Sequence record: PP400780
Strand: one strand, 5' to 3'
DNA from: Escherichia phage FL18
DNA: 64,000 nt
The notes under the pieces were generated by a model that saw nothing but the letters and a program-made list of their open reading frames with translations, searched no databases and was not told where the DNA came from. This document shows, piece after piece, positions 6,841 through 64,000 of this stretch. The position numbers and the translations under genes were made by a program. The number at the start of each line of letters is the position of its first letter. Position 1 is the stretch's first letter.

Positions 6841-7167
6841 ATGACTATTCAAATTAAAAACGCCATCAATTCTTACGCATATGATAAAGTAGTTTCTTTG
6901 CTAGAAAAAGGCGATATTGTAACTCCTCAAATTTTGGATAAATGGGAAAAAGAGCTTCATCAAATGATGAAACAGAATGATCAGAAGATTGGACGCAACA
7001 CTGTACGTGAATTGTTGGTTCAATATATCTTGTCAGAATTTGATGTTAAAGCTTTTGGTGTAGAATCTAAAGCTTATCAAAAGCATGAAATTTCCGATAA
7101 AACTATTCGTCGCATGAAAAATCAACGCAAGAAAAAAATTGCAGACCTGAAAATTACTAAGGTATAA
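6841..7167 (+). CDS. hypothetical protein (55.x series)
   Basis: 108-aa ORF with ATG and GAGGA RBS. Confidence 0.55.
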   Translation: MTIQIKNAINSYAYDKVVSLLEKGDIVTPQILDKWEKELHQMMKQNDQKIGRNTVRELLVQYILSEFDVKAFGVESKAYQKHEISDKTIRRMKNQRKKKIADLKITKV

Positions 7168-7169
7168 TT

Positions 7170-7385
7170 ATGAACGAAGCTCTTATTAACGATTTGCGTC
7201 TTGCTGGATATGAAGTAAATACAAATGGCATTGGTTTAACTCAAATTGAAGGAAACGGATTCATCCTTGAGTATGAATTTAGCCAATGGTGGTTATATGC
7301 CAATTACGGCGAATTGATTGAATATGTTGACCAATTTGATTCACTAGATGCAGCTCTTGAAGCGGCTAAGTTGATGAATGTATGA
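7170..7385 (+). CDS. hypothetical protein
   Basis: 71-aa ORF tightly packed after previous gene. Confidence 0.5.
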   Translation: MNEALINDLRLAGYEVNTNGIGLTQIEGNGFILEYEFSQWWLYANYGELIEYVDQFDSLDAALEAAKLMNV

Positions 7386-7651
7386 AATTTATTAATATTT
7401 CTATTACTATTGAAAATTATGGCATTTTCTATGTTGACCAATACATGAAAATTTCATTTTTCCCAAATAAGACTGGTGTTGGATATTGGGAAAGTCATGT
7501 TTCTGAATTAAATGAAAGTGAATATGTTAGCACACATGAAAAGTTTTTAGACTTTTTATATCATGCAGATTTAACTAGTCATTATATAGATATTCATGAA
7601 TTTAAAAAGATGATGGAGAAAGTGTTCCAAGCATACTGTTTACTTAGATAA
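7382..7651 (+). CDS. hypothetical protein
   Basis: 89-aa ORF, ATGA overlap. Confidence 0.5.
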   Translation: MKFINISITIENYGIFYVDQYMKISFFPNKTGVGYWESHVSELNESEYVSTHEKFLDFLYHADLTSHYIDIHEFKKMMEKVFQAYCLLR

Positions 7652-7691
7652 CTGATATCCTCTATGCTTTAAGATAGATCTTCAAATATTA

Positions 7692-7700
7692 TGATATAAT
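7692..7700 (+). promoter_or_regulatory. extended -10 element (TGaTATAAT) upstream of gene 55
   Basis: TGATATAAT about 30 nt upstream of gene 55 ATG; TGCTTTA-like box lies further upstream at about 7665. Confidence 0.3.
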
Positions 7701-7729
7701 AGATCTATGAATTGAGCTAAGAGGTGAAA

Positions 7730-8287
7730 ATGTCAGAAACTAAGCCTAAATATAATTACGTAAACAATAAAGAGCTTTTACAAGCTATTATTGATTGGAA
7801 AACAGAATTAGCAAATAATAAAGACCCAAATAAAGTAGTTCGTCAGAATGATACTATCGGATTAGCCATTATGCTTATTGCAGAAGGCTTATCTAAACGT
7901 TTCAACTTTTCAGGATACACCCAGTCTTGGAAACAAGAGATGATTGCAGATGGGATTGAAGCCTCTATTAAGGGACTTCATAATTTCGACGAAACTAAGT
8001 ACAATAACCCGCATGCATACATAACTCGAGCTTGTTTTAATGCTTTTGTCCAACGTATCAAAAAAGAACGTAAGGAAGTTGCAAAGAAATATAGTTACTT
8101 CGTTCATAATGTCTACGACAGTCATGACGATGATATGGTAGCGTTGGTAGATGAAACGTTTATTCAAGACATCTACGATAAAATGACGCATTATGAAGAA
8201 TCCGCTTATAAAGCTCCTGGGGCTGAAAAGAAGGAAGTTGTTAGCGATTCGCCTAGTTTGGATTTTTTATATGAGGACGACAATTGA
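7730..8287 (+). CDS. 55: late-transcription sigma factor gp55
   Basis: 185 aa from ATG ([10 protein letters not shown]); matches T4 gp55 N-terminus and length; GAGGTG RBS. Confidence 0.9.
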
Positions 8288-8486
8288 CATCTCTAACTAC
8301 TTAGAAGAACCTTTTGACGAAGCAATCCCTTATTTGGTAAAACTGTTGGGTCGAGAATTTAAAATTAATTTTGACATCGACCCTTTGAACCCACATGACG
8401 TGTCATTTTCGATAAATGGGACTCCAGTTGAGTACGAGTTCCGTATTGAAGAGGACGGACGTTTTTATTTTAATTTAATGAGATAA
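8271..8486 (+). CDS. hypothetical protein (71 aa)
   Basis: Internal ATG of ORF 8193..8486 overlapping gp55 stop. Confidence 0.4.
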
Positions 8487-8487
8487 T

Positions 8488-8811
8488 ATGACTACCGAGA
8501 TTATTGAAAATAAAGAAGCAGAAGATGCAGTAGCTAAAATGCTACAAGAAATCCAAAAGAAAAATGAAGCTGAAGCACGTAAAAAATCCGAAAAGATTCT
8601 TAAAAAGAATCGTTTTGAACTAAACCGTCTTTATGCTCATGCTCAAGAAGCAGCAATTCAAAACAACTTCGAAGCTTACGAATATGCTATTAAGAAATCT
8701 CGGGATATTCTACGACAACCATATAATGACAAGTTAATTAAAATCCAGTGGGTTACTACTCGTCAGGCTATTGAGGACATCATTAATGGCGCTAGTTCAA
8801 ACAAAGTTTAA
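8488..8811 (+). CDS. hypothetical coiled-coil protein
   Basis: 107-aa ORF rich in E/K/A/Q. Confidence 0.55.
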   Translation: MTTEIIENKEAEDAVAKMLQEIQKKNEAEARKKSEKILKKNRFELNRLYAHAQEAAIQNNFEAYEYAIKKSRDILRQPYNDKLIKIQWVTTRQAIEDIINGASSNKV

Positions 8812-8992
8812 ACGTCTGAAGCTGAACGCAGGGTTCACCCTTAAATTGGGAGGTCCTCTTTGTGTTAAAATTTCTGAAAAGGAATATCACGACGGTTCTA
8901 TTACAGAAATTTGTCCGCCTATTGTAAAGGCACACCCAAAACAACTCGTGTGGGTTGATTCATTTCAAGTTAAGAAATGGTGGAAACGATGA
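8786..8992 (+). CDS. hypothetical protein (68 aa)
   Basis: ATG (MALVQTKFKR) overlapping end of upstream ORF. Confidence 0.35.
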   Translation: MALVQTKFKRLKLNAGFTLKLGGPLCVKISEKEYHDGSITEICPPIVKAHPKQLVWVDSFQVKKWWKR

Positions 8993-9031
8993 GAGAAATT
9001 GATTTAGGCATTTTCTGAGAGGTGCTTATGC

Positions 9032-9205
9032 ATGACGAACATCCCGACTTCTGAAAATTTCGATAAAATCCGTAAAGGCAAAGCAGAAAGAATGAGACGT
9101 TTTAAAGAGTCTTATGATAAAGCTAAAGCCGAAGGAACTATTACATACAAGCCCATTCGATTTAAAAGTTCAAATGAGCCTCTGTACGGTGTACTATGTG
9201 GATAG
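9032..9205 (+). CDS. small hypothetical protein (57 aa)
   Basis: ATG after GAGAGGTG RBS; below ORF-track length cut-off; ends at terminator hairpin. Confidence 0.35.
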   Translation: MTNIPTSENFDKIRKGKAERMRRFKESYDKAKAEGTITYKPIRFKSSNEPLYGVLCG

Positions 9206-9228
9206 GAACTCTTCGGAGTTCCTTTTTT
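9205..9228 (+). terminator. intrinsic terminator
   Basis: GGAACTC-TTCG-GAGTTCC perfect hairpin followed by TTTTTT. Confidence 0.6.
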
Positions 9229-9251
9229 GCTTTATAAACGGATGATAGAAT
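9228..9251 (+). promoter_or_regulatory. MotA-box middle promoter upstream of gene 47
   Basis: TGCTTTA box about 19 nt (centre to centre) upstream of TGATAGAAT extended -10. Confidence 0.45.
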
Positions 9252-9274
9252 GAATTAACTAATGAGGAAATAAT

Positions 9275-10294
9275 ATGAAAATTTTGCACTTAGGCGACTT
9301 CCATATCGGAGTCAAACAAGACGACCCATGGGTTCAAGATATTCAACGTGATGGTATTCGACAAGCAATTGAATACTCTAAGAAACACGGGATTAAAACT
9401 TGGATTCAGTACGGTGATTGGTTTGACGTCCGTAAAGCAATAACACATCGTACAATGGAATTCAATCGTGAAATCGTTGATATGATTTCTAAAGCAGGCA
9501 TTCACGTTCATGTCACGATAGGAAACCATGACATGGCGTTTAAGAATACAATAACACCTAACACTGTTTCTGAATTGTTAACTCAATTTGAAAACTTTAC
9601 TATTTACGAGCATCCGACTACTGTAGATTTTGACGGATGTCTGATTGATATCGTTCCATGGATGTGTGAAGAAAATACAGGTGAAATCTTAGAGCACATC
9701 AAGACTTCTTCTGCCGCATATTGTGTTGGGCACTGGGAACTGAATGGCTTTTATTTCTATAAAGGGATGAAGTCTCATGGGCTTGAACCTGATTTCTTAA
9801 AGACCTATAAACAAGTCTGGTCTGGCCACTTCCATACAATCTCTGAAGCTGCTAACGTCAAATATATTGGGACACCATGGACCCTTACTGCAGGTGATGA
9901 GAACGACCCTCGCGGATTCTGGGTATTTGACACTGATGTTGAACGTATGGAATTTATTCCTAATGAAACAACATGGCATCGACGAATCACTTATCCATTT
10001 AAAGGCAAAATCAATTATTCTGATTATACTAATCTAGCCGTACGTGTTATAGTATCAGAAATTGATTCAGAGTTGACTAAGTTTGAATCTGAACTTGAAA
10101 AAGTAGTTCACTCTCTTCGTATGGTTTCTAAAGTTGATAACAGTGTTGAATCTGATGACGACCAGGAAATCGAGATTAAATCACTTCAAGATATCATTAA
10201 AGAATATATTGACGCGATTCCAGATATCTCAGACGAAGACAGAGAAGCGCTGGTCAAATATTCCAACGAACTTTATATTGAGGCGACACAATGA
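9275..10294 (+). CDS. 47: recombination endonuclease subunit gp47 (Mre11/SbcD-like)
   Basis: 339 aa; phosphoesterase motifs LHLGDFH, GDWFD, GNHD, GHWE, GHFH. Confidence 0.9.
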   Translation: MKILHLGDFHIGVKQDDPWVQDIQRDGIRQAIEYSKKHGIKTWIQYGDWFDVRKAITHRTMEFNREIVDMISKAGIHVHVTIGNHDMAFKNTITPNTVSELLTQFENFTIYEHPTTVDFDGCLIDIVPWMCEENTGEILEHIKTSSAAYCVGHWELNGFYFYKGMKSHGLEPDFLKTYKQVWSGHFHTISEAANVKYIGTPWTLTAGDENDPRGFWVFDTDVERMEFIPNETTWHRRITYPFKGKINYSDYTNLAVRVIVSEIDSELTKFESELEKVVHSLRMVSKVDNSVESDDDQEIEIKSLQDIIKEYIDAIPDISDEDREALVKYSNELYIEATQ

Positions 10295-10548
10295 CTTTAG
10301 ATGAATTTAATAATGCTGGTCTTGGGCTTGAAGTTGAAATAGACGTTAAAGATGATGATGGATTCGAGAACACTATCAAGTATTGGATTGAACCATTACG
10401 TGTTGAAGGCAATGAAGTTAAAGCAGTTCATGTCTGCACCGACTGGGCTATTGAATTTAGCTTTAATATAATGGACAACGATACTCCCGGCTCTATTCTT
10501 AAAATGGCTGAAGCGTGTATTGAGGATGCGTATAATGACGAAGACTGA
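10291..10548 (+). CDS. hypothetical acidic protein (46.x series)
   Basis: 85-aa ORF, ATGA overlap with gp47. Confidence 0.55.
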   Translation: MTLDEFNNAGLGLEVEIDVKDDDGFENTIKYWIEPLRVEGNEVKAVHVCTDWAIEFSFNIMDNDTPGSILKMAEACIEDAYNDED

Positions 10549-10774
10549 TTATGAAATCCATCGTCATGAATTTAGTATTGGTGACGGTTATATTGGTATC
10601 GTTGAATGGACTGAGAATTACGAGGAATCAACTCCTCGTTTCTTTGGAACAATGTATGTTACCTGTGAGTACGCACCAGGTGTTGTTATGTATGCAGAAC
10701 TAGATGAATATTTTGCTGATAGGGATGACATGTTAAAATATGTAGAGGACTTCATTCGAAGAGAATACATATGA
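10535..10774 (+). CDS. hypothetical protein (46.x series)
   Basis: ATG with GAGGA RBS inside ORF 10520..10774 (track start is TTG). Confidence 0.5.
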   Translation: MTKTDYEIHRHEFSIGDGYIGIVEWTENYEESTPRFFGTMYVTCEYAPGVVMYAELDEYFADRDDMLKYVEDFIRREYI

Positions 10775-12459
10775 AATCATTTAAATTAAATCGTGTTCGT
10801 TATCAAAACATCATGTCGGTAGGTGGGAATCCTATTGATATCCAATTAGATAAAGTCCAAAAGACATTAATCACCGGTAAAAATGGCGGCGGTAAATCTA
10901 CGATGTTAGAAGCCGTTACTTTCGGACTTTTCGGTAAACCATTTCGTGATGTTAAGAAAGGACAAATCATTAATAGCACGAACAAGAAAGAGCTCTTAGT
11001 TGAGCTTTGGATGGAATTCGATGATAAAAAATACTTCATTAAACGTGGCCAAAAGCCCAATATTTTCGAAATCTCCGTTGACGGTGTTCGTCTCGATGAA
11101 TCTGCCAGCAGTCGTGACTTCCAAGAAGAATTTGAACGTAGCATCGGAATGTCATACGCGTCTTTTAAACAGATCGTTGTGCTTGGGACGGCAGGGTATA
11201 CCCCTTTCATGGCTCTTAGCACCCCTGCTCGTAGAAAACTTGTCGAAGACCTTTTAGAAGTCGGCACACTCGCTGAAATGGATAAAATCAATAAGTCTCA
11301 AGTTCGCGAACTTAATTCTCAGGGACAAGTTCTTGATGCCAAGAAAGATGGTGTTATCCAACAAATTAAGATTTATAACGAGAATATCGAACGTCAAAAG
11401 AAATTATCTGGTGATAATGTAGCGCGTCTACAGAATATGTATGACGACCTAGCCAAAGAAGCTCGTTCATTAAAAGCAGAAATCGAAGAAGCTAATGAGC
11501 GACTACTTAATATCGTTCTTGATGAAGACCCTACTGAGGCATTCAACAAGATAGGACAAGAAGCATTCTTGATTAAATCTAAAATCGACTCATACAACAA
11601 AGTTATTAAGATGTATCATGACGGTGGCACATGTCCTACTTGTGCATCACAATTGCACCAGGGTGACCCTATTGTCTCTAAGATTACCGATAAGCTTCAT
11701 GAATGTAATCACTCATTCGAGCAACTTACCTGTCACAGAGATAATCTGAGTGTCCTAGTTGATGAATATAGAGCTAATGTTAAGACTAAGCAGGACCTTG
11801 CATCTGATATTCGTACCAAGAAACAAGCAATGATTGCCACTATTGATAAAGCTAAGAAAGTTAAAGCTGCAATAGAACAAGCCTCGGCGGAATTTATCGA
11901 CCATGCTGATGAGGTAGCTTTGCTTCAAAAAGAACTTGATAAAATCATTAAAACAAAATCAGATATCGTTCTTGAAAAATATCATCGTGGTATTATCACA
12001 GATATGTTAAAAGATTCTGGTATTAAAGGTGCTATCATTAAAAAATATGTGCCTCTGTTTAATAAGCAGATTAACCATTATCTTAAAATCATGGAAGCCG
12101 ATTACGTGTTTTCTATTGACGAAGAATTCAATGAATCTATAAAATCACGTGGCCGTGAAGAGTTCAGTTATGCTTCATTTAGTCAAGGTGAAAAGGCACG
12201 TATCGATATCGCATTGTTGTTTACATGGCGAGATATTGCTGAAAAGGTTTCTGGTGTTAAAATCAACACTCTAATTCTTGATGAGGTTTTTGATGGTGCT
12301 GTCGATTCTGAGGCTGTTAAGGCTATAGATACCATCCTTGGTAGTTTACAAAATACTAACGTGTTCATTATCTCTCATCGAGACCATGACCCTCAACGTT
12401 ATGGACAACATCTTCAAATGAGCAAAGTTGGACGATTTACTGTGATGACTGTCTCATAA
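10771..12459 (+). CDS. 46: recombination endonuclease subunit gp46 (Rad50/SbcC-like ATPase)
   Basis: 562 aa; Walker A GKNGGGKST, central coiled coil with CPTC zinc hook, C-terminal LILDEVFDG Walker B/signature. Confidence 0.9.
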   Translation: MKSFKLNRVRYQNIMSVGGNPIDIQLDKVQKTLITGKNGGGKSTMLEAVTFGLFGKPFRDVKKGQIINSTNKKELLVELWMEFDDKKYFIKRGQKPNIFEISVDGVRLDESASSRDFQEEFERSIGMSYASFKQIVVLGTAGYTPFMALSTPARRKLVEDLLEVGTLAEMDKINKSQVRELNSQGQVLDAKKDGVIQQIKIYNENIERQKKLSGDNVARLQNMYDDLAKEARSLKAEIEEANERLLNIVLDEDPTEAFNKIGQEAFLIKSKIDSYNKVIKMYHDGGTCPTCASQLHQGDPIVSKITDKLHECNHSFEQLTCHRDNLSVLVDEYRANVKTKQDLASDIRTKKQAMIATIDKAKKVKAAIEQASAEFIDHADEVALLQKELDKIIKTKSDIVLEKYHRGIITDMLKDSGIKGAIIKKYVPLFNKQINHYLKIMEADYVFSIDEEFNESIKSRGREEFSYASFSQGEKARIDIALLFTWRDIAEKVSGVKINTLILDEVFDGAVDSEAVKAIDTILGSLQNTNVFIISHRDHDPQRYGQHLQMSKVGRFTVMTVS

Positions 12460-44456: not shown

Positions 44457-46274
44457 ATGATTAAAAATGAAATTAAGGTATTGACAGATGTAGAACATAT
44501 TAAGAAACGTAGTGGTATGTATATTGGTTCTTCGGCTAAAGAAGCACATGAGCGTTTTTTGTTTGGTAAATATCAACAAGTTGAATATGTTCCTGGTCTG
44601 GTTAAATTAATCGATGAGATTATTGACAACTCGGTTGATGAAGCTATTCGTACATCATTTAAGTTTGCAAATAAAATTGATGTGCAAATTAAAAATAATC
44701 AAGTTTCGGTGGAAGATAACGGACGTGGTATTCCTCAAGGTTTAGTTACTGACCAAACAGGTGAACAAATTCCTGGTCCTGTAGCGGCCTGGACTATTCC
44801 AAAGGCTGGTGGTAACTTTGGTGATGATTCTGAACGCAAGACTGGTGGTATGAACGGCGTCGGGAGTAGTTTAACTAATATCTTCTCTACGTTGTTTACA
44901 GGCATCACGTCAGATGGCGAAAACGAAATCACTGTTAACTGTTCAAACGGAATGGAAAACAAATCATGGTCTTCTAAGAAATCTAAAGGTAAAGGCACTA
45001 AAGTAATCTTCACTCCTGATTTCTCTTCATTTGAAGAACATAATTTATCTCAAATTTATTTAGATATTACTTTAGACCGACTTCAAACATTGGCAGTCGT
45101 TTATCCTGATATCAAGTTCACATTTAATGGTAAAAAGGTTGATGGTAATTTTAAACGATTTGCTAAACAATTTGGTGAAGATAACATCATTCAAGAAAAT
45201 GATAAAGTCTCTATAGCATTCACAACATCACCAGATGGCTTCCGTCATTTAACTTATGTGAATAACATCCATACTAAAAATGGTGGCCATCATGTTGAAT
45301 GCGTAATGGATGATATCTGCGAACATCTTTTGCCGGGTATTAAAAAGAAATATAAGGGTATTGAAGTCACTAAAGCTCGTGTTAAAGAATGCCTCACAAT
45401 GTTGATGTTTATTAGAGACATGAGCAACATGCGTTTTGATTCTCAGACTAAAGAACGTTTAACGTCAACGTATGGTGATATTCGTAATCATATCCAATTA
45501 GATGCTAAGAAAATTGCTCAGGCACTTCTTAAAAACGAAGCCTTGATTATGCCTATTGTTGAAGCAGCATTAGCTCGTAAATTGGCAGCAGAAAAGGCTG
45601 CAGAAACTAAAGCAGCTAAAAAGGCAACTAAAGCTAAGGTTCATAAGCATATTAAAGCTAACCAATGTGGTAAAGATGCAGATACGACATTGTTTTTAAC
45701 AGAAGGTGATTCGGCAATTGGTTATCTCATTGATGTTCGTGACCGTGAACTACACGGCGGATTCCCATTACGTGGTAAGGTGATGAATAGCTGGGGTATG
45801 TCATATGCTGATATGATGAAGAACAAAGAGCTCTTTGATATCTGTGCTATCACAGGTCTTATTCTTGGTGAAAAGGCAGAGAATACGAACTATCGTAATA
45901 TTGCAATTATGACCGATGCCGATCACGACGGTCTTGGAAGTATTTATCCTGCTTTGCTTGCTTTCTTTAGTAATTGGCCCGAATTGTTTGAACAAGGACG
46001 TATTCGCTTTGTTAAAACACCTGTAATTATTGCACAAATTGGCAAAACTCAAAAATGGTTTTATACTGTAGCTGAGTATGAAGAAGTTAAAGATACACTG
46101 CCTAAGCATAGTATTCGATACATCAAGGGATTAGGCTCCCTTGAAAAGTCAGAGTATCGTGAAATGATTCAGAACCCTGTGTACGACGTAGTTAAACTTC
46201 CTGAAAATTGGAAAGAACTCTTTGAAATGTTGTTGGGTGATGATTCAGAACTTCGTAAAGAATGGATGTCCTAA
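44457..46274 (+). CDS. 39: type II DNA topoisomerase large (ATPase/GyrB-like) subunit gp39, unsplit
   Basis: 605 aa continuous; GHKL motif IDEIIDNSVDEA, TOPRIM-like region; no separate gene 60 follows. Confidence 0.92.
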   Translation: MIKNEIKVLTDVEHIKKRSGMYIGSSAKEAHERFLFGKYQQVEYVPGLVKLIDEIIDNSVDEAIRTSFKFANKIDVQIKNNQVSVEDNGRGIPQGLVTDQTGEQIPGPVAAWTIPKAGGNFGDDSERKTGGMNGVGSSLTNIFSTLFTGITSDGENEITVNCSNGMENKSWSSKKSKGKGTKVIFTPDFSSFEEHNLSQIYLDITLDRLQTLAVVYPDIKFTFNGKKVDGNFKRFAKQFGEDNIIQENDKVSIAFTTSPDGFRHLTYVNNIHTKNGGHHVECVMDDICEHLLPGIKKKYKGIEVTKARVKECLTMLMFIRDMSNMRFDSQTKERLTSTYGDIRNHIQLDAKKIAQALLKNEALIMPIVEAALARKLAAEKAAETKAAKKATKAKVHKHIKANQCGKDADTTLFLTEGDSAIGYLIDVRDRELHGGFPLRGKVMNSWGMSYADMMKNKELFDICAITGLILGEKAENTNYRNIAIMTDADHDGLGSIYPALLAFFSNWPELFEQGRIRFVKTPVIIAQIGKTQKWFYTVAEYEEVKDTLPKHSIRYIKGLGSLEKSEYREMIQNPVYDVVKLPENWKELFEMLLGDDSELRKEWMS

Positions 46275-46299
46275 GCTCCTTCGGGAGCTTCATTTTAAT
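46274..46299 (+). terminator. intrinsic terminator-like hairpin
   Basis: AGCTCC-TTCG-GGAGCT followed by T-rich tract. Confidence 0.5.
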
Positions 46300-46316
46300 T
46301 TTAATAAGGCTTAATT

Positions 46317-47417
46317 ATGAAAGTTATGTTTATCCCATCTCGCGCAGTCCCATTTAACCCAGAACGTGTACAAGGTGGTCTTGAAGCAGTACATTTAAAT
46401 GTGTTGAAATATCTTGTGTCCATCGGTGCTGATATTGATTATATCGGCTTTGATAATGACACGTTTGGTGACTGGAAGGTTAATCATCATCCTGTTGGTC
46501 ATCTGACTAAATTCAGTCTAGGTATGAGTTATACTATGGCTCGTAAGATTGTTGAACTAGCCGGCATTAATGAGTACGATTTCGTTGTTACAATGGAACC
46601 GACCAAACTAACCGTTCAGGCAATTAAAGACGCAGGTCTCTCTAAAGTTCATAAGAATTTTATGGCAACACCATTTGAACCAGTATCTCGTGGCATTGTT
46701 CAAATTTGGGACCAGACTATTCAAATTCATAAGAACGGTGGTAAGAGTTATGCTCCTACTAAAGCCTTCCGTGAATTTGAACGCAAATATTGTTATATGA
46801 CTTCAGGTCTGACTGACAAAATTGATTATGATTATTGGCGAGCAAATCCGTTGTTTGAAGCCGAAGATTATCCGGTTATTTGTTTGAATGATAAACCTGA
46901 AGTTCTTCCGGCGACGGATCTGATTATTAGTGCACAACGTTATGACACTAAAATGCGTCGTACTGATGTTGCTCTTGAAGCGATTAAAGCACTAGGCGAA
47001 AATGGTGCAGGATACTGTCCAAGCAAATGGGCGCCACCGGCTAAATATCCTGTTATTATTGATGCTCCACACAGTGAAATTATGGAACGTCTTAAAACAG
47101 CTAAAGCACTTATTAATACGTGTCCTGACACAGGTACGGTAGAGAATAGTTCTATTGAAGCCATCTCTAAAGGTGTCCCTGTAATCCAGTTAGTTTTTAA
47201 GGATTATCCTCATGCGACATTTGAATACGACCCAGATACTGTGCGTGTAGAAATTGATTCCTCTACTCCTAAGAAAGAAGTAGTTGCGCTTTACACAAAA
47301 GCTGTATTAGAATTCACTGACACATACGAAGCTCGAGTTAAACGTGCTGAAGCTGTATGGAAGAAGTATAACCGAGATGCAGTTGTTGCGATGTGGGATA
47401 AAATCTTCACAGCGTAA
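46317..47417 (+). CDS. GT-B fold glycosyltransferase (candidate DNA sugar transferase)
   Basis: 366 aa; N-terminal MKVMFIP..GGLEAVH Rossmann start; C-terminal TGTVENSSIEAISKGVPVI resembles the GT4 E-x7-E donor-binding motif. Confidence 0.6.
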   Translation: MKVMFIPSRAVPFNPERVQGGLEAVHLNVLKYLVSIGADIDYIGFDNDTFGDWKVNHHPVGHLTKFSLGMSYTMARKIVELAGINEYDFVVTMEPTKLTVQAIKDAGLSKVHKNFMATPFEPVSRGIVQIWDQTIQIHKNGGKSYAPTKAFREFERKYCYMTSGLTDKIDYDYWRANPLFEAEDYPVICLNDKPEVLPATDLIISAQRYDTKMRRTDVALEAIKALGENGAGYCPSKWAPPAKYPVIIDAPHSEIMERLKTAKALINTCPDTGTVENSSIEAISKGVPVIQLVFKDYPHATFEYDPDTVRVEIDSSTPKKEVVALYTKAVLEFTDTYEARVKRAEAVWKKYNRDAVVAMWDKIFTA

Positions 47418-47509
47418 ATCCTGAATAGCCTGAGGCACTATTACACATAAGATGATAGATTATATGGTCTTTAGTAATAGTGCCCTAGGAATCTACTGAA
47501 GAGAATATT

Positions 47510-47710
47510 ATGAGAACATATAACGTGGACTTGGAACTTTTTGATAAAGCAGTGCTCCGGGAATTCCGGCTTATCCAAAGATTTTTTGATATCGAGTCAG
47601 CAGAGTCCTTTAAAGAACGCTTTAAAGAAATTCGATATAAAATACAAACCGATACAGCTACTAAAGAAGAACTTCTCGAAGTGGCAGAAATTTTTAAACG
47701 TAACTTGTGA
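47510..47710 (+). CDS. hypothetical protein (66 aa)
   Basis: ORF between glycosyltransferase and rIIA. Confidence 0.45.
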   Translation: MRTYNVDLELFDKAVLREFRLIQRFFDIESAESFKERFKEIRYKIQTDTATKEELLEVAEIFKRNL

Positions 47711-47722
47711 TGAGAGAAAAAT

Positions 47723-48677
47723 ATGATTATTGAAACGGCTAAAGAAACGATTATTGGTTCTGGTGGTAAAAGCACAGCATTTACTATTCAAGGCAATAGC
47801 AAAGTTTATAAGATTTTGTCTAATGACCTTTATACAAACAAAGAATTGGCTTGTGTACGTGAATTAATCACAAACTGTATCGATGGACAAATTCTTAATG
47901 GTTGCACTGATAAGTTTATTGTTCAGGCTCCAGGTCGTTTAGACCCACGTTTTGTAGTTCGAGACTTTGGTCCTGGTATGAGTGATTTCACCATTCGAGG
48001 TAATGACGAAGAGCCAGGAATCTATAACTCATATTTTGCTTCAACTAAAACATCGAGTAACGATTTCATTGGTGGATTCGGACTCGGCTCTAAAGCTCCA
48101 CTAGCATATACCGATACGTTTAACATTACTTCTTATCATAATGGTGAAGTTCGTGGTTATGTAATTTATCAAGATGACAGTGGTCCACAGATTAAGCCAA
48201 CCTTCGTAGATAAGATGGGTCCTGATGACCGGACCGGCGTTGAAGTAGTTGTGCCTGTTAACCCAGAAGATTTTGAAAAGTTCGCATCCGAAATTGCATA
48301 TGTTATGCGTCCTCTAGGTGATATTGCAGAAGTTCGCGGTGTTAAAGATATCAAATACTTTCCTGAATTCGATGATGTTTATTTAGCCAAGGAAGCTCCA
48401 TGGGGTGAACGTGGTAATATCATGGCTGTTTATGGTGGTATTGTATATCCAATCGGAAGTGTTATTAAAGAACAAACCTGGATGATGACGCGATGCACAC
48501 TACGGCTGGTTAGAATGCAACGAAGTTGTTATTGAAATCCCACCGGTAGATGCAGAATATCTTGAAGAAGGAGACCGCATTTATTTTGGCGAACTACACA
48601 TCAGAGGTATCTATGGTAAAGACGAACTTGGGGCTGTTGAGGCTGAAGAGTCTTCCGACATTTATCCTGTCGAATGA
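47723..48677 (+). pseudogene. rIIA: rII-locus remnant: rIIA N-terminal portion (270 codons) followed by a frame-shifted protein-like segment
   Basis: N-terminus close to T4 rIIA as recalled; frame stops at 48535; another frame stays open 48489..48677 with protein-like sequence. Confidence 0.55.
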
Positions 48678-48693
48678 GTTTTTGACTAGCGAA

Positions 48694-49170
48694 ATGAAGG
48701 TTAAGATCGCTGATACTGCTCGGTACTCGTTGAAACAAGATCCAGACCAAAACAAAGAAGATGTAGTTCGACGTTGTAAGGTTGCGGTCTTTGCAGAGTA
48801 TGTAGTAGCAAATTGGCTAGACGGATATGTTAATAAAGGTATTGAAGACGTAGAAGACCCGTACACGTATGCATGGGACGTGTTAGCCCATCCCAAGTAT
48901 TGTGGAATTCGTGTAGAAGTCAAGACACACCAGATAGATTCTAAATGGATTTCGGTTACCACAGGATACAGTGGTGATTATCCGGGTGGTAATGGAATCA
49001 ATATAGGGCCCTTCCTTAATCATCGAGTCGCAGATTGCATTATTATATTAGATGTCAAAGAAACCTCACCTGACGTCTTCTCTTATTCTATAAAGTTCGT
49101 GGGAGACCATGAAGACCTAAAGAAAATCGTCCGTAAGAGCAACTACAACGGGTGGTATCTTCATCTTTAA
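48694..49170 (+). CDS. hypothetical protein, possible PD-(D/E)xK nuclease (denB candidate by position)
   Basis: 158 aa from ATG in ORF 48550..49170; D...EVK motif (WDVLAHPKYCGIRVEVKTHQ); upstream of ndd as denB is in T4. Confidence 0.4.
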   Translation: MKVKIADTARYSLKQDPDQNKEDVVRRCKVAVFAEYVVANWLDGYVNKGIEDVEDPYTYAWDVLAHPKYCGIRVEVKTHQIDSKWISVTTGYSGDYPGGNGINIGPFLNHRVADCIIILDVKETSPDVFSYSIKFVGDHEDLKKIVRKSNYNGWYLHL

Positions 49171-49183
49171 TTTCATAAAAATG

Positions 49184-49212
49184 TTTACAACTAAGTAGGA
49201 CTATGATATAGT
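49184..49212 (+). promoter_or_regulatory. T4-type early promoter
   Basis: TTTACA then 17 nt then TGATATAGT within GGACTA..TAGTCC inverted repeat. Confidence 0.45.
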
Positions 49213-49238
49213 AGTCCTATCTAAAAGAGGATAACATC

Positions 49239-49502
49239 ATGAAATTTAAATTTTTCTACGCAAAACATAAAGTGACCGGTGAGTTTGTTTCAATGTACAA
49301 CACTGTAGATGACGAAGGGATGATTTATACTCATTTAAGTCTATCTCATTGGGACTCAGACGTGCCTTATATGTCATCTGAAGCCGAAATAACTCGTTTA
49401 GTTAATGGACATATGAACGACCATTTTGGTGTTATTCTTTCTAAAGACCTTAAAGAGGTTATCAACAAAGGATATATGGAACTCGCGGAAGTTGAGATAT
49501 GA
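49239..49502 (+). CDS. hypothetical protein (87 aa)
   Basis: ORF with AAGAGGA RBS. Confidence 0.55.
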   Translation: MKFKFFYAKHKVTGEFVSMYNTVDDEGMIYTHLSLSHWDSDVPYMSSEAEITRLVNGHMNDHFGVILSKDLKEVINKGYMELAEVEI

Positions 49503-49695
49503 GCTCTAAAATGTGGATAGGAATATGGTTGCTTAGTATCCCAATGATTTGTATAATATTTTCAATTGTGTTGAGGTACTTATGAAAAATGCACTTCTTA
49601 TTGTACTAAGAACAATTTGTGATGCGTGGTTTTACATTGCATGTTCGTTCACTGGAACATGGTTGGCTTTAACATATTTTAATGTAATTTAATTG

Positions 49696-49725
49696 TTTAC
49701 ATCAAGGTAGGATTATGGTATAGTA
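49696..49725 (+). promoter_or_regulatory. T4-type early promoter
   Basis: TTTACA then about 18 nt then TGGTATAGT. Confidence 0.45.
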
Positions 49726-49752
49726 GTCCTATCAAATCAAGAGGAAAACAAA

Positions 49753-49953
49753 ATGGCTAAGCTTTTTAAAGATGTTGAAATTGGTGAAAAATTTGTCCTG
49801 AATAATGGTCAGCAGCTTATTCGTGTAGCTTCTATAGCCGGACAAACTCATAACTGTATCGCCCCAACGTGTTGGGCCCGATTCTTTATTGAGGATGACA
49901 CCGAATGTTTAACTGTTGAAGAGCTTTTTGAACGTTCTGATATGGCCGAATAA
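49753..49953 (+). CDS. hypothetical protein (66 aa)
   Basis: ORF with AAGAGGAAAA RBS. Confidence 0.5.
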   Translation: MAKLFKDVEIGEKFVLNNGQQLIRVASIAGQTHNCIAPTCWARFFIEDDTECLTVEELFERSDMAE

Positions 49954-49955
49954 AA

Positions 49956-49985
49956 TTGTACAAACTCTTGAGAGCAGAGTATAAT
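49956..49985 (+). promoter_or_regulatory. T4-type early promoter
   Basis: TTGTAC then about 18 nt then TATAAT. Confidence 0.45.
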
Positions 49986-50029
49986 GCTCTCATGGATTAC
50001 AAAAACATTAATCAATTGAGGAAATTAGC

Positions 50030-50476
50030 ATGACCAAATATTTAACTCGTAAAGACCTTCTGGCAGTTGGCGGTGAAGTTGTTGCAGTAGTTCGTAATGG
50101 CGAATACGGTTCTGAAGTTTCTAAAGAGTTTCGTTCTCGTGAAGGTTTTTACTTCTTCGTTAAAGGTTCATCTGATTGGCGACAAGTAGCAGCACGATTC
50201 TTTGTAGGACGTCAACGTTCTAAACAAGGGTTGGATGCAATTCTTTCTCATATTCGTCAAGGCCGTTCGCAACTAGCCCGTACCATGGGCACTAACAATA
50301 TTGAATATGATGTAATCTTTGTTTCAGCTAAGAACATGAAACCTCTGACTACTGGTTATGGTAAAGGTCAATTGGCTCTGGCGTTCACTCGCAATCATTC
50401 ATCAGAATATCAAACACTCACTGAAATGAACCGTCTTCTGGCAGATAATTTCAAATTCATTCTGCAGAGTTACTAA
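50030..50476 (+). CDS. ndd: nucleoid disruption protein Ndd
   Basis: 148 aa; [31 protein letters not shown]...[22 protein letters not shown] matches T4 Ndd as recalled. Confidence 0.85.
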
Positions 50477-50528
50477 TTTATATAGGCCTATTAAGTTGGG
50501 CCTTTAATTTATTTTTGAGGTAATTAAA

Positions 50529-50675
50529 ATGATAGCATGGATTATTGCATTGCTGTGTTGGTCGTTTTTATTCGTTAACACTTTAGTTACAGGCGAAACA
50601 ACAGTATTTCAACAGGCGGTATCACAAGGTACCTTAGCGGTCTTAGCTCTTCTTAACGTATTAAAAGGCGAGTAA
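50529..50675 (+). CDS. small hydrophobic peptide (48 aa; ac/52.1-like region)
   Basis: ATG with GAGGT RBS; single TM segment; below ORF-track cut-off. Confidence 0.4.
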   Translation: MIAWIIALLCWSFLFVNTLVTGETTVFQQAVSQGTLAVLALLNVLKGE

Positions 50676-50815
50676 TGATTAAGAAAATCTTAGCAGGAGC
50701 CTTCGGGCTCTTGTTGTTGCTTACGGTTCTGTACTACGGTGTGATGTTTGGGCTAATCCAAGTAGTGCTTTTCATTTCAGATGTTATAATGGTTATTCGT
50801 TCATTAATATGGTGA
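50675..50815 (+). CDS. small hydrophobic peptide (46 aa)
   Basis: ATG overlapping previous stop; hydrophobic throughout. Confidence 0.4.
   Translation: MIKKILAGAFGLLLLLTVLYYGVMFGLIQVVLFISDVIMVIRSLIW
50765..50790 (+). promoter_or_regulatory. MotA-box middle promoter upstream of gene 52
   Basis: TGCTTTT box about 19.5 nt upstream of TGTTATAAT. Confidence 0.4.
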
Positions 50816-50819
50816 AAAT

Positions 50820-52145
50820 ATGCAATTGAATTCTCGTAATCTAAAAAGTATTATTGATAACGAAGCCTTAGCATATGCGATGTACACCGTTGAAAACCGT
50901 GCAATCCCAAACATGATTGATGGATTTAAGCCGGTTCAACGTTTTGTGGTTCATCGTGCGTTAGATTTGGCTCGTGGTAATAAAGAAAAATTTCATAAAC
51001 TTGCGTCAATTGCAGGCGGTGTTGCAGATTTAGGTTATCACCATGGTGAATCTTCTGCACAAGATGCAGGTGCATTGATGGCTAACACATGGAACAACAA
51101 CTATCCACTGTTAGATGGCCAAGGCAACTTTGGTTCTCGAACAGTCCAAAAAGCTGCAGCATCTCGTTATATTTTTGCTCGTGTAAGTAAAAATTTCTAT
51201 AACGTATATAAAGATACTGAATATGCTCCAGCTCATGAAGATAAAGAACACATTCCACCAAAATTCTATCTTCCTATTATTCCGACAGTTCTTTTGAATG
51301 GTGTCTCTGGTATTGCAACCGGTTACGCAACAAATATTCTGCCTCATAGTTTTAAATCAGTCAAAAAGGCTGTATTACAAGCTCTTCAAGGTAAAAATGT
51401 CACTAAGCCAAAAGTTGAATTCCCGGAATTCCGTGGTGAAGTACATGAAGTTGATGGGCGTTATGAGATTCACGGAACATATAAGTTCACATCTCGCACT
51501 CAAATGCAGATAACTGAAATCCCATATAAATTCGACCGTGAAACGTATGTGAGTAAGGTTCTTGACCCGTTGGAAGACAAAGGTCTAATCTCATGGGAAG
51601 ATGATTGTGGTGAACACGGCTTTGGGTTTAAGGTGAAGTTCCGTAAAGAGTACTCGCTTCCTGATGATGAAGAGCTACGTCATGAAAAAATCATGAAAGA
51701 TTTTAGTCTCATCGAACGTCGTTCACAAAACATCACAGTGATTAATGAAAAGGGTAAATTAGCTGTCTACGATAACGTAGTGGACTTAATCAAAGATTTT
51801 GTTGAAGTCCGTAAGACTTACGTTCAGAAACGTATTGACAACAAAATCCTTGAATCTGAAAAAGCATTTAAACTGGCTTTTGCTAAGGCACACTTCATCA
51901 AAAAAGTTATCAACGGTGAAATTGTGATTCAGGGCAAGACTCGTAAAGCTTTGACTGAAGAGCTAGCACAAATCGAAATGTATAAAGAACATGTCGATAA
52001 ACTGGTAGGTCTTAACATCTTCCATATCACTTCTGACGAAGCACGTAAACTAGCAGAAGAAGCTAAAGCTAAGAAAGAAGAAAATGAGTATTGGAAGTCT
52101 ACTGATGTTGTGACAGAGTATACTAAAGACTTGGAGGCACTTTGA
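50820..52145 (+). CDS. 52: type II DNA topoisomerase medium (GyrA-like) subunit gp52
   Basis: 441 aa; N-terminal NMIDGFKPVQRFVVH, catalytic-Tyr region; size as T4 gp52. Confidence 0.92.
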   Translation: MQLNSRNLKSIIDNEALAYAMYTVENRAIPNMIDGFKPVQRFVVHRALDLARGNKEKFHKLASIAGGVADLGYHHGESSAQDAGALMANTWNNNYPLLDGQGNFGSRTVQKAAASRYIFARVSKNFYNVYKDTEYAPAHEDKEHIPPKFYLPIIPTVLLNGVSGIATGYATNILPHSFKSVKKAVLQALQGKNVTKPKVEFPEFRGEVHEVDGRYEIHGTYKFTSRTQMQITEIPYKFDRETYVSKVLDPLEDKGLISWEDDCGEHGFGFKVKFRKEYSLPDDEELRHEKIMKDFSLIERRSQNITVINEKGKLAVYDNVVDLIKDFVEVRKTYVQKRIDNKILESEKAFKLAFAKAHFIKKVINGEIVIQGKTRKALTEELAQIEMYKEHVDKLVGLNIFHITSDEARKLAEEAKAKKEENEYWKSTDVVTEYTKDLEAL

Positions 52146-52221
52146 GTGCCCTAGCCTTAGGATTTCTCAGTGCAATAGCTGCACTAGTGATTTGGCTATA
52201 TTGGTTGGACAAACATGATTA

Positions 52222-52245
52222 GGGAGCTTCGGCTCCCTTTGTGCA
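52222..52245 (+). terminator. intrinsic terminator
   Basis: GGGAGC-TTCG-GCTCCC followed by T-rich tract. Confidence 0.55.
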
Positions 52246-52262
52246 TTTTCCTCACAAAACAG

Positions 52263-52290
52263 TTTACACGTGCTTCAAACATGATATTAT
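52263..52290 (+). promoter_or_regulatory. T4-type early promoter upstream of motA
   Basis: TTTACA then about 16 nt then TGATATTAT. Confidence 0.5.
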
Positions 52291-52329
52291 AGACCTATCA
52301 AAACAAAACAACCAAATTGGAGAAATAAA

Positions 52330-52962
52330 ATGTCTAAAGTTACTTACATCATCAAAGCTTCTGAAAACGTTCTGAATGAAAAAACTGCTGCAATAATGGT
52401 TTATATCATTAAGAACAACTTCACAACTGCTGCCAATGTCCGTGAAGCTCTGGAAGCAGAATACAATGCATCAGTTGTTAACTCTAACATTGGTGTATTG
52501 ATTAAGAAAGGTTTAGTCGAAAAATCTGGTGATGGACTTGTAGCAACAGGCGAAGCAATGGATATTATCCAAAAAGCTGCAGACCTATTTGCTCAAGAAA
52601 ATGCTCCAGAACTTCTTCAGAAACGTAACACCAGAAAAGCACGTGGAGTTACTCCTGAAATGCATGAACTAGCAAACTTTGTTTTTGAAAATATTAAAGA
52701 TAAAGTTGAAGTTAAAGAAATTGGTGAAAACCGTAGTAACTTGGAAGTTCGATTTGCAAAACGAGTTCTAGGTATTCGTCAGATCGAAATTCGTCGAGAT
52801 GGCGCTCTTAGAATCTTTGCATACAACATGTCAGAAACTGAATCAAAGCTGTTTACTTCTCTTGAAAATGATGTTAAGATTAAGATCGGTGGTAAATATA
52901 CCTACATTGACTTCCCTAATGTGTCCAAAGAAATCATTACCCTTGTAACTAACGTACTGTGA
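52330..52962 (+). CDS. motA: middle-transcription activator MotA
   Basis: 210 aa; N-terminal MSKVTYIIKAS and NSNIGVLIKKGLVEKSGDGL match T4 MotA as recalled; C-half more divergent. Confidence 0.85.
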   Translation: MSKVTYIIKASENVLNEKTAAIMVYIIKNNFTTAANVREALEAEYNASVVNSNIGVLIKKGLVEKSGDGLVATGEAMDIIQKAADLFAQENAPELLQKRNTRKARGVTPEMHELANFVFENIKDKVEVKEIGENRSNLEVRFAKRVLGIRQIEIRRDGALRIFAYNMSETESKLFTSLENDVKIKIGGKYTYIDFPNVSKEIITLVTNVL

Positions 52963-52972
52963 GGAATACATA

Positions 52973-53302
52973 ATGAATAAGCTGAATATTATTAACGAAC
53001 TTCGTAAATGTGCAGAACCTACTCAGGAAGGATGGGATATTTGGTACCACGGGGCTTATTTAGGGACAATTGTAAAGATTAAAGCAGGCCAATATACGGT
53101 TATTCGTGAAAATAATGACGCGCCATTTGGCCTTCGTAAAAACTACATGGCAGCGATCAGTTCATTTGTTGATGCAGCTTACGAAATCTATAAAGAAGAT
53201 TATAAAGAATATCAGCAGTCACAACCGGTTATTCGTTCGATTGGTGTAAATAAACAAGCACAAAAATCTATTTGGCAACGTATTAAGGAATGGTTTAAAT
53301 GA
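52973..53302 (+). CDS. hypothetical protein (109 aa)
   Basis: ORF between motA and asiA. Confidence 0.55.
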
Positions 53303-55742: not shown

Positions 55743-56516
55743 TTATACTCTTGAACCGTATATTGTACCAACCTTAGTCCATGTTGGGGCATTTCCGGTA
55801 ACAGCTTTACCTGCTGCGCCGCCGTTATATTCTGTACCGTTACCTTGAGTATTACATCTTCCTCCAGCAGCACCAACGTTACCGCCCGCACCGCCTGTAT
55901 ATGCACTAAGAGACCCCTCACCAACAGATCCTTTACCAGGAGCGGAAATAGTACCAGCAGTTGCACCGGAACTCATATGAGAGGAAGACCCACCAGCACC
56001 GAATGGGCACCCACCGCCACCGCCAAATATTAGTTTACCCCTGTTACCGCCGCCACCGCCGCCGCCGCCGCCTGCAATAGCTCCGCCATTATTAATTCTT
56101 AGTCTCCCACCAATATCGTTTTGAATACAATGACCCCCAGCTGAGCCAGGACTATTGCTACCACCATTACCTCCACGACCATACATTGTTACGCCATGTA
56201 TATTTAACTGAACATATTCATTTGGTGTATCTCCGTACATGAAGAATAAAGGAACATCTTTAGAATATGATACTAAATCTCCAGTGATATTAAACACTAT
56301 AGGTGCACTACCTGCCTCAAAACATCTATCTCGGAACCATTGACCATTGAAGTTATGGTCTGCTCCAAGTGTGTGAATTACTTCAACAGATCGACCTATC
56401 ATATTACTCATCCAAAACGGAATTCCCATTCTCAATCTCTGTGCGGCACCACCCATCCAAGGATCTCCAGTCTGTACCCTCGCAGACCATCCTACCCACG
56501 GTCCTTCAACTGCCAT
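55743..56516 (-). CDS. 38: long tail fibre tip adhesin gp38 (T2/T6-type, glycine-rich motifs)
   Basis: 257 aa from ATG (track start is GTG); conserved N-terminus [10 protein letters not shown]; poly-Gly blocks [20 protein letters not shown]. Confidence 0.85.
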
Positions 56517-56526
56517 ATACACCTCC

Positions 56527-61725: not shown

Positions 61726-64000
61726 TTATTCAATCCACTCGAATTTAACAGATTTATTCACAGGGTCCGGAATAATGCGGACATTACCAATCCTTAAGAA
61801 ATCCCTTATTGTCAAGTTTCCGATTGTTGCATTATCAGAAGGTAAAGCACCAATATCAGAAGGTTGAGGAGGGTTTCCACCATCAAATACCTGAACAAAA
61901 CTTGACCAAGAATTTTTGGTTTTCTGCCATGTACGTGTCCAACGGGTTGTACGTGCTTCTGGAGTTGTTGGATAAGTAATCCAATCTTGGTAAAGTGAAT
62001 CAAGTGTGTTACCAAACTGAGTCAGTGTACCAGGAGATTTAACTTCTTCGCCACGTTCTAAGTATGGAAGCCCAGTCACTTCATTAGTTTTTTCAACCAT
62101 TTTAAAATAACCTGGGAACTGGTTATAAGTGGCTGAATCGTTAATATCGATTGACCAGAATCCTACAGTATCAGATGTTGGCGAACGGGTATATAAATCA
62201 GATGTTTTAGTACCCTGAGAACGAATGCTCGAGTAAACAGATAAACCACCTGAATTTATAGTAACACCTTTAGCAATGATTAAGCCTTCACCAATTGTAA
62301 TCTGGCCGGATTGATTATTAATTGATAATGGGCGTAATCCATTAAATCCACCAGTCTGATCACCTGATGCAGTAAGCATAAAATATGTGCTGCCTCCATC
62401 ATTGCGAATAAAGAATCCGTAATCACCACTAATTGCTCTGAAAGCATTTGCAGACTTGCTAATGAATTCACCATTGGCTGTAACTGAACGACCAAATGTT
62501 GCAACACCATTCGCATTTAACGTGCCTGAAGCGTTAACATTTATTGGCATCACAGTACCATTAATGCTAAACGTTATATTCCCAGCTTTATTACGTTGAG
62601 AATAAAAGTGATTAGATGTTTCATCACCAACTTCAAATACAGTAGAACGTGTTGTATCTGAACCACCACCAAATTCATTTCCCCAAACTCTGATAGTCAT
62701 CGTCTGTGCTGGGTTAGTTCCAGTCTGAGGTCCTTTCTCAAAAATCAGACGAGTTGCCGTTCCAGTATTAGAAATAGTTAATGTACTATTTGCCGAAACT
62801 GAACCACCAAACGTAGCAGTACTAGATGATACAAGAGGGGCACTCAGATTCGTTTGTTGTGTTAAGGTTAGTGAACCATTAACCGTCTGTGCAATGTCCC
62901 TACGAATGAACTGAGATGAATCTAGGCCATCTAATAAATTTGCATCAGCAGCTTTAGCTTTCAATGGCAAATAGTTAGCAAGTACACGGTTTAATTCATA
63001 TGGAGATATAGCATAGCTATTTTTTTCATACGATTCTAAAGGTTGTGTTGAACCAACTGTATCATTACCAACAAATGTAATAGAACCAGATGAAGTTTTA
63101 ACGAATCCGCGAATTGTTGTAGTAGCAGCCCATGTTGGTTCATTCTGGACAATCCATTTTAAATTCTTAGGAGATACAGCAGTATTAGCAGAAGTTCCTG
63201 TTACAGTTTCAGCCTGAGTAGCAACCTTAATTACGCCTTCAGACGTTTCAGTGGACTTAGTCCCTAAAAGCTTTTTAGGAGTAATAAGAACATCATCTAA
63301 AGTTCCTGCATTAGATTCTGCCTGGGTCGCTACTCGAAGTGTACCACGTTGTGTTTCATTTGCTTTAGAAATATCAAGAGTATAATGGTTCCACAAGGTT
63401 CCTTCTTCAATAAGTCCGGAATCAGAATTAACACTGGTACGGTCAGAAGAATCAAAATGAGTTTTAATTTTCAGTGGAGTCGAGATACGAGTATCATCAG
63501 TTCCAGTATCAAATTCAACTTGCGTAGCAAGTTCGGCTATGCCGGATAATCCTTCCGTCGCTCTCCTATCATTTAACGTCTTAGGCGTTACTGCACGTGT
63601 ATAATCAGTCCCAGCATTAGTTTCTGCTTGCGTAGCAATTTCAATTAAACCAATACGTCCATCAGTAGAAGTTTTCTTATGTAGTGTTTCAGGAGTTACT
63701 ACAGCGTGAGAATAACCTGCTTGGGATTGACCAGCAATTACTTCACTTTCAAGAGCCAGAATAGTAGCACCCTGTTGAGTAGAAGTCGCTTTATACTGAT
63801 CGAGAGCTTTAGGCGAAATAGTTAACGTAGTTGTGTCTTTATTATAAACGTTAGTGCCTGCAGTTCCACGAGTTTCAGCAGGAGTAGCAGAAGCAGTTGA
63901 TACATATTTAACTATACCCGATAGTGTTTCGGAACCCTGACGTGCCTGTAATTTCTTAGGCGTAATAATCGTTGTGTCATCAATTCAGCCTGAGTAGCAA
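61726..64000 (-). CDS. 34: long tail fibre proximal subunit gp34 (C-terminal part; gene continues beyond window)
   Basis: Open frame from window edge region to stop at 61726; repeated VATQAE-type motifs; C-terminus IGNVRIIPDPVNKSVKFEWIE as T4 gp34. Confidence 0.85.

Follow-up and report, generated by a model that had tools for sequence, protein, structure and literature searches.

Gene Content of the rII Locus of Phage FL18

This study concerns the rII locus in a 64-kb stretch of DNA from Escherichia phage FL18 (64,000 nucleotides of sequence record PP400780, one strand), referred to below as the window. The window belongs to a T-even phage of the genus Mosigvirus (RB69-like), with top database matches at about 97.5% identity across 24 kb. 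Fine-structure genetics and the triplet code were established at the rII locus, whose natural role is still poorly understood. An earlier note on this DNA had read the locus as an rII deletion by which the 5' part of rIIA is joined, out of frame, to a fragment from further downstream and no rIIB is left. Alignments to complete relatives together with tblastn searches bore this reading out, and the coordinates given in the note were all confirmed. Genes in this part of the window follow the order gp39, a putative arabinosyltransferase gene, rIIA.1, a truncated rIIA (rIIA'), a gene remnant, denB, two small ORFs, ndd.1, ndd, ac, 52.1 and gp52. In complete relatives, the locus consists of rIIA (737 aa), rIIB (311-315 aa), the DUF7418 gene RB69ORF272c (95 aa) and denB; in the wild-type relative Bas46 (ChristianSchoenbein), these are an rIIA of 737 aa, an rIIB of 311 aa, a 95-aa hypothetical gene and denB, and the 95-aa gene is RB69ORF272c in the curated RB69 record. 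The features of the locus are as follows.

47510..47710, plus strand: rIIA.1, intact, sets the synteny on the upstream side (Pfam T4_RIIA1, E 2.1e-30, profile positions 1-65 of 67)
47723..48535, plus strand: truncated rIIA, 270 aa (PHROG 612, profile positions 1-257 of 725, E 1.7e-116)
48490..48498, no strand: deletion junction, the one remaining copy of the 9-bp direct repeat GCGATGCAC (overlap of the left and right alignments to Bas46)
48499..48677, plus strand: RB69ORF272c/DUF7418 gene remnant holding codons 35-95 of 95 (Pfam DUF7418, E 1.6e-20 over positions 37-99 of 101)
48613..49170, plus strand: denB (endonuclease IV), intact, probably 185 aa (PHROG 1360, positions 1-188 of 203, E 7.9e-89 with the extension described below)
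50030..50476, plus strand: ndd, downstream anchor of the conserved gene order (Pfam Phage_T4_Ndd, E 1.4e-89)

The ORF at 47723, in which the earlier note had seen the N-terminus of rIIA stopping after 270 codons at 48535, is the rIIA N-terminus by its PHROG 612 match. It is made up of about 259 native rIIA codons (to 48499) followed by 11 out-of-frame codons and a TGA stop at 48533-48535; its DNA is about 97% identical to, and colinear with, that of Bas46 and mar007P3, and its product is letter for letter XAO15106.1, annotated in FL18 as 'rIIA lysis inhibitor'. With Bas46 RIIA as tblastn query, the matches in the whole window covered residues 1 to about 259 only, while Bas46 RIIB gave no match better than E 1.4 anywhere in it, and a relocation of rIIB within the window was therefore rejected. 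The description of the rIIA N-terminus as GHKL-like has only indirect support. Motifs of the GHKL N, G1 and G2 type, including GGFGLGSK, are visible at stub residues ~45-125, the homologue P0003 (33% identity, E 2e-32) has Pfam HATPase_c_3 (E 1.3e-9) over the aligned residues, and Hsp90/endoplasmin proteins match residues 17-55, the N-box region, though weakly (E about 0.002). A direct Pfam match of the stub to GHKL/HATPase_c was, however, absent at E < 0.1, and Pfam and NCBIfam searches gave no match for the RIIA stub or for DenB. Although the stub retains this ATPase-like N-terminal region, we treat it as non-functional.

The second frame, open from 48489 to 48677, is a downstream fragment joined out of frame, as had been proposed; it does not, however, come from rIIA or rIIB, as a 'frame-shifted fragment' of the rII locus would, but from the small DUF7418/ORF272c gene between rIIB and denB, of which it holds the C-terminal 61 codons. 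The frame also matches PHROG 2237 (positions 36-105 of 106) and corresponds by tblastn to residues ~29-95 of Bas46 ORF272c. Start codon, ribosome-binding site and upstream region are gone. No ATG, GTG or TTG occurs in the frame of the remnant and a TGA lies just upstream at 48486, and the remnant should therefore not be translated. Judged by its incomplete domain, the DUF7418 stretch is a gene remnant and not a member gene.

The 158-aa product of the third frame, tentatively named DenB in the earlier note, is DenB by PHROG 1360, lies in the conserved position upstream of ndd (found at 50030, where the note had placed it) and is 98% identical to the DenB of Bas46, but the start of the gene probably lies further upstream. 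The shorter version (48694-49170, 158 aa) matches PHROG 1360 with E 1.4e-81, whereas the 27 codons ahead of it fill profile positions 1-27 and raise the score from 273.8 to 297.4 bits, and a GAGG stands 5 nt upstream of the ATG at 48613. Because the extension raises the profile score and the GAGG precedes this ATG, the start is probably at 48613, giving 185 aa, and not at 48694. Both lengths are annotated among GenBank relatives.

The Deletion Junction

The end points of the missing segment were defined by alignment to Bas46. Window positions 44524-48498 correspond to positions 1-3975 of the Bas46 locus and window positions 48490-53000 to positions 6501-11011, the two alignments overlapping by exactly 9 bases. 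About 2,525 bp are missing in comparison to Bas46, and 2,532-2,546 bp in comparison to relatives with a longer rIIB. With the deletion, rIIA lost its last 478 codons and ORF272c its first 34, while rIIB and the intergenic region between rIIB and ORF272c are gone entirely, so that rIIA codon ~259 is joined to codon 35 of the DUF7418 gene, and the right end of the deletion stops 114 bp before denB. Across window 17028-53787, this deletion is the sole large indel relative to mar007P3.

In wild-type relatives, the sequence found once at the junction is present twice. vB_EQ1 and mar007P3, both wild type, each have two perfect copies of GCGATGCAC about 2.53 kb apart, one at rIIA codons ~257-259 and the other at codons ~34-36 of the DUF7418 gene, and in G2469, WFK and WFL6982 the left copy and the preceding 110 bp match the window at 100% identity. 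Imperfect homology extends beyond the repeat, with CCTGG upstream and TAC(A/G)GC downstream. Among the approximately 440 direct repeats of at least 7 bp in the wild-type rIIA-to-denB interval, GCGATGCAC ranks second to third by nearest-neighbour duplex stability. The idea that the longest repeat had set the end points was ruled out, since AT-rich direct repeats of 10-12 bp are present in the same interval; the repeat at the junction is instead among the most stable.

A Loss-of-Function Deletion in a Mosigvirus

Taken together, we are confident that the locus arose in a Mosigvirus by a spontaneous deletion with loss of rII function. Retention of a single copy of a short direct repeat would be the signature of slipped misalignment or illegitimate recombination. 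On this model, the two GCGATGCAC copies some 2.53 kb apart would have misaligned during replication or recombination, with loss of one copy and of all the DNA between them, and the outcome would be what is found in the window, a 270-aa RIIA stub, an untranslatable ORF272c remnant and an intact denB. The duplex stability of the repeat, the imperfect homology around it and two further Mosigvirus rII deletions ending in direct repeats, described below, support this model. Repeat-flanked deletions have been documented in T4-family phages, according to the report of Singer and Westlye (1988) as cited in PMC5449768, and in phage CSP1 (PMC13577005). The rII deletion described here is thus a further instance of a classical mutation type, involving no new mechanism, that was overlooked in the annotation of field isolates.

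Several points weigh against this interpretation. The papers describing FL18 (PMC12032242) and AV116 (PMC10844046), the latter a phage with the same junction that is described below, do not mention rII. The window is 64 kb of the genome, which formally leaves room for a relocated rIIB elsewhere. The repeat is only 9 bp long while longer repeats exist in the interval, so that the use of this particular pair is only partly accounted for. Finally, the deletion mechanism is read from the junction and was not observed.

Two other accounts of the short locus were weighed against a true deletion. An assembly or sequencing artefact, or a minority variant promoted by the assembler while the real phage keeps a full rII locus, might be suspected from the apparent 13-nt frameshift in gene 34 at the end of the window, a sign that the sequence may hold errors. 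A repeat of 9 bp, however, is much shorter than the k-mers used by assemblers and cannot make 2.5 kb collapse, the sequences on either side align cleanly and colinearly with relatives, the identical junction was obtained from the separately sequenced AV116, and at 165,790 bp the FL18 genome is short for the genus (its smaller size in comparison to FL31 has been attributed to extra genes in FL31; PMC12032242). We therefore hold an artefact to be very improbable. Even less credence can be given to the short arrangement as an ancestral form or a normal lineage-specific architecture onto which other phages gained rII. Among related phages, which the earlier note had singled out as the place where its reading could fail, one, AV116, does share the short arrangement, but about 152 of 153 Mosigvirus records hold the full rIIB, the junction falls in a direct repeat of which the wild type has two copies, and the pieces that were kept are truncated, namely 259 of 737 aa of RIIA with a junk tail and an ORF272c without its first 34 codons and start. 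Since these records keep rIIB and the genes in the window are visibly truncated, the short form is derived, and the truncated reading frames refute it as the ancestral state.

Comparison With Known rII Deletions and Other Null Alleles

Classical T4 rII deletions include those of Benzer's set, for example r1272, which removes both cistrons, and r1589, an rIIA-rIIB fusion. As in those mutants, the deletion in the window lies inside rIIA-rIIB of a T-even phage, although it runs past rIIB into the DUF7418/ORF272c gene and stops 114 bp short of denB. The T4 rII-denB deletions rPT8 and NB5060, in contrast, also remove denB. An in-frame rIIA-rIIB fusion of the r1589 type was considered for the window and rejected, because rIIB is absent, the join is out of frame and a stop follows after 11 codons. 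T4 rII mutants are laboratory stock, whereas the allele in the window comes from a Mosigvirus of pig faeces; the T4 deletion mutants are viable on hosts without RexAB, and by analogy the same is predicted for the phage in the window. A junction at a short direct repeat is a further likeness to T4 deletions, as far as the findings of Singer and Westlye (1988) are cited in PMC5449768. The deletions of PhiCHI14, PhiCBH8 and PhiX20 (PMC5449768) and of CSP1C (PMC13577005) are likewise of kilobase scale and flanked by direct repeats of 5-14 bp (14 bp in CSP1C; PMC13577005) of which one copy is kept, and in PhiX20 the same deletion was recovered repeatedly (PMC5449768); unlike the allele in the window, they lie at other loci and were obtained by laboratory selection under a defined pressure.

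Other rII-null alleles were found in Mosigvirus assemblies, and two of them are deletions. One (contig L022, Logan SRR8797781, gene at 4001-5224) encodes an in-frame RIIA(1-294)::RIIB(~198-311) fusion of 407 aa, of the T4 r1589 type, produced by a deletion of ~1.93 kb at the 6-bp direct repeat GTTGCA and reported on three contigs. The other (L024, Logan ERR15003903) is a 2.34-kb rII deletion between 9-bp copies of AAGATGGGC, which leaves a 172-aa RIIA' and a 75-aa RIIB'. In a further contig (L023, ENA ERZ1745275), rIIA breaks at about 4495, at the same AAGATG site as in L024, into glnE-like, host-looking DNA; this contig, with 5x coverage, is probably a chimeric assembly and the shared break point a coincidence. 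Three assemblies carry independent single-base nonsense mutations in rIIA, as follows.

L025, 4883-4885: rIIA nonsense mutation E295*, GAA to TAA, rIIB intact
L026, 4709-4711: rIIA nonsense mutation Y237*, TAT to TAA, rIIB intact
L027, 4679-4681: rIIA nonsense mutation W227*, TGG to TGA, rIIB intact

Since these nonsense alleles fall at codons 227, 237 and 295, a stub of about the 270-aa size appears to be a recurrent end state. The two deletions and three nonsense alleles inactivate the same locus as in the window, and the two deletions are also flanked by direct repeats, but end points or mutations differ in every case and all five keep ORF272c intact. A literature search on the SRA/ENA sample accessions of these alleles found nothing.

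One Junction in Two Phages

The only phage-collection entry spanning the junction of the window is AV116 (OR352946.1), whose locus is annotated with an 'rIIA lysis inhibitor' of 269 aa and, after it, an endonuclease gene. AV116 was isolated from Danish pig waste (PMC10844046) by the same Copenhagen laboratory that obtained FL18 from piglet faeces by plating on MG1655 (PMC12032242). The two phages have the identical junction, with the same 9-bp repeat kept and the same gene content (rIIA' followed by denB). They differ in that overall identity is ~96%, their haplotypes diverge within 21-105 bp of the junction, the rIIA' stop of AV116 comes one codon earlier, AV116 has a homing endonuclease gene inserted upstream, and it carries a T4-type gp37 fibre tip instead of a Gp38 adhesin (PMC10844046). 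The homing endonuclease gene (L001, 1578-2375) lies between gp39 and the arabinosyltransferase-like gene; next to it, the 3' end of AV116 gp39 has only 82% identity with the window, and 28-38 differences per 200 bp are found in the 5' part of the following gene, a divergence that fits a co-conversion tract around the insertion.

Whether the shared junction reflects one event or two was considered in the light of how common rII loss is and of the flanking sequences. At least 80% of rIIB is present in approximately 152 Mosigvirus records, compared with 153 in which the adjacent ndd.1 segment is found. On the left of the junction, the last 200 bp of the window are identical to those of the rII+ phage G2469 and show 9 differences from AV116, one of them 12 bp from the repeat; on the right, the first 200 bp show 7 differences from AV116 and 1 from mar005p1. 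FL18 and AV116 are thus not each other's closest relatives at this locus, in a genus whose genomes are mosaic at the 100-300 bp scale. Sites 47677, 49797 and 49836 were examined as candidate SNPs private to the window and AV116, which would have hinted at shared ancestry. The last two were rejected as such, since the segment with 49797 and 49836 occurs within one mismatch in many phages, including RB69; the apparent privacy of these two sites, the only ones of the three that were rechecked, looked like a sampling artefact. In viral contig and metagenome contig collections, the junction 29-mer GATGATGACGCGATGCACACTACGGCTGG had no match. A junction 19-mer gave 7 metagenome matches and 1 genome match, all of which were discarded as chance hits in DNA of 52-60% GC without other similarity.

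The evidence pulls both ways. A single deletion allele, identical by descent in FL18 and AV116, circulating in Danish pig-associated Mosigvirus and moved between backgrounds by homologous recombination, has in our judgement about an even chance of being the correct account. FL18 and AV116 are the only ones among ~154 Mosigvirus genomes to lack rII and do so with an identical junction, both come from pig samples processed by one laboratory, and because rII mutants, by analogy to T4 genetics, have no plaque phenotype on MG1655, the FL18 deletion probably pre-existed in the faeces and was not selected during purification. The other rII-null alleles that were found all differ, so that a random null would rarely be the one shared by FL18 and AV116, and with mosaicism at 100-300 bp only short shared tracts are expected around an old allele. 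Descent from one event has to contend, however, with flanks that diverge close to the junction on both sides, with the lack of any allele private to both phages that would mark a shared tract, and with the absence of the junction from viral, metagenome and genome contig collections. The differing flanks, each found in rII+ phages, would be expected if the same deletion had arisen independently in two backgrounds with GCGATGCAC as a hot-spot repeat pair, an account that we take seriously while placing it slightly below an even chance. Recurrence would also accord with a repeat that is GC-rich in a genome of ~37% GC (PMC10844046) and stands near the top of the stability ranking, with the imperfect homology (CCTGG and TAC(A/G)GC) around it, and with the finding that nine escape mutants of one T4-family phage shared one repeat-flanked deletion (PMC5449768). 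It would nevertheless require that two independent de novo mutants each reached a frequency at which they could be sampled, and that the same junction appeared twice in one laboratory's pig samples by coincidence, when point nulls and other deletions are also available; moreover, the 10-12 bp repeats of the interval are not seen in use. Other explanations account for the small remainder.

Predicted Phenotype and Significance of rII Loss

The phage in the window would be rII-null and, by the behaviour of T4, viable on ordinary hosts including its isolation host MG1655. T4 rII mutants show no plaque phenotype on non-lysogenic K-12. The rII functions are required against RexAB and are otherwise dispensable (PMC8594841; bioRxiv 10.1101/2023.05.28.542683); in the BASEL study all tested wild-type T-even phages were RexAB-resistant, whereas the T4 rII fusion mutant r1589 was not (PMC8594841, S5 Fig). 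RIIB has moreover been reported to trigger a CARD-gasdermin defence which rIIB-null T6 mutants escape (bioRxiv 10.1101/2023.05.28.542683). Because of this behaviour of T4 rII and T6 rIIB-null mutants, the phage in the window should be excluded by lambda lysogens that carry RexAB and should be insensitive to RIIB-triggered defences. It should also cause rapid lysis on B-type hosts. FL18 and AV116 would accordingly be predicted not to plate on strains that are lambda-lysogenic or carry RexAB, a point of relevance to host-range or biocontrol work, and the label 'rIIA lysis inhibitor' on the stub in both genomes conceals the defect.

A null allele shared by two field isolates, together with several other nulls in assemblies, shows that rII loss is tolerated outside the laboratory. 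These phages provide natural material on the cost and benefit of rII on real hosts, and they bear on whether RexAB-like or RIIB-sensing defences shape the retention of rII. It is a tentative and rather doubtful proposal that the deletion is a naturally maintained rII-null allele, circulating and recombining among pig-gut Mosigviruses in a setting where the loss of RIIA and RIIB is neutral or advantageous; a possible advantage would be escape from host defences, for example CARD-gasdermin-type systems, that RIIB triggers. If this were true, rII would be a conditionally costly counter-defence locus whose presence or absence is polymorphic in the wild. The interest of the allele is modest and would rise if it proved to be such a maintained natural polymorphism.

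Other Features of the Window

The genes that flank the locus at a greater distance are as follows; the position of rIIA.1, nearer the deletion, equals that in moskry, mar007P3 and HX01.

44457-46274: gp39, undivided, 605 aa
46317-47417: putative hmC-arabinosyltransferase gene
50820-52145: gp52

Downstream of denB, two promoter-like elements of almost the same sequence (TTTACA, 17 nt, TATAGT, with a TG upstream in both) occur at 49184-49212 and 49696-49724, within about 70 bp of repeated sequence ahead of an ORF270c-like gene and of ndd.1, and these resemble early promoters of the T4 type. Scans of the window for Rfam families and tRNAs found nothing.

Gene 34, for the proximal subunit of the long tail fibre, is on the minus strand, with its stop at 61726, and runs off the end of the window. 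At 63984-63988, 13 nt (ACCGATGCTGGTC in mar007P3) are missing, 121 nt of the query aligning to 134 nt in every full-coverage Mosigvirus match, and the upstream 'ATQAE' and downstream 'DDTTIITPKKLQ' frames are out of phase, with a TGA in the downstream frame. Only 16 nt of the window lie upstream of this gap, which may reflect either a frameshift in an essential gene or an error in its sequence.

The segment 53788-59671, from the arn genes to gp37, gave no megablast match to mar007P3. It contains asiA, the holin gene t, a 259-aa ORF for a putative gp38 adhesin and a 1102-aa gp37, and represents the usual hypervariable host-range module. The 259-aa ORF (55743-56522, minus strand) occupies the gp38 position, which agrees with the report of a gp38 adhesin in FL18 (PMC12032242).

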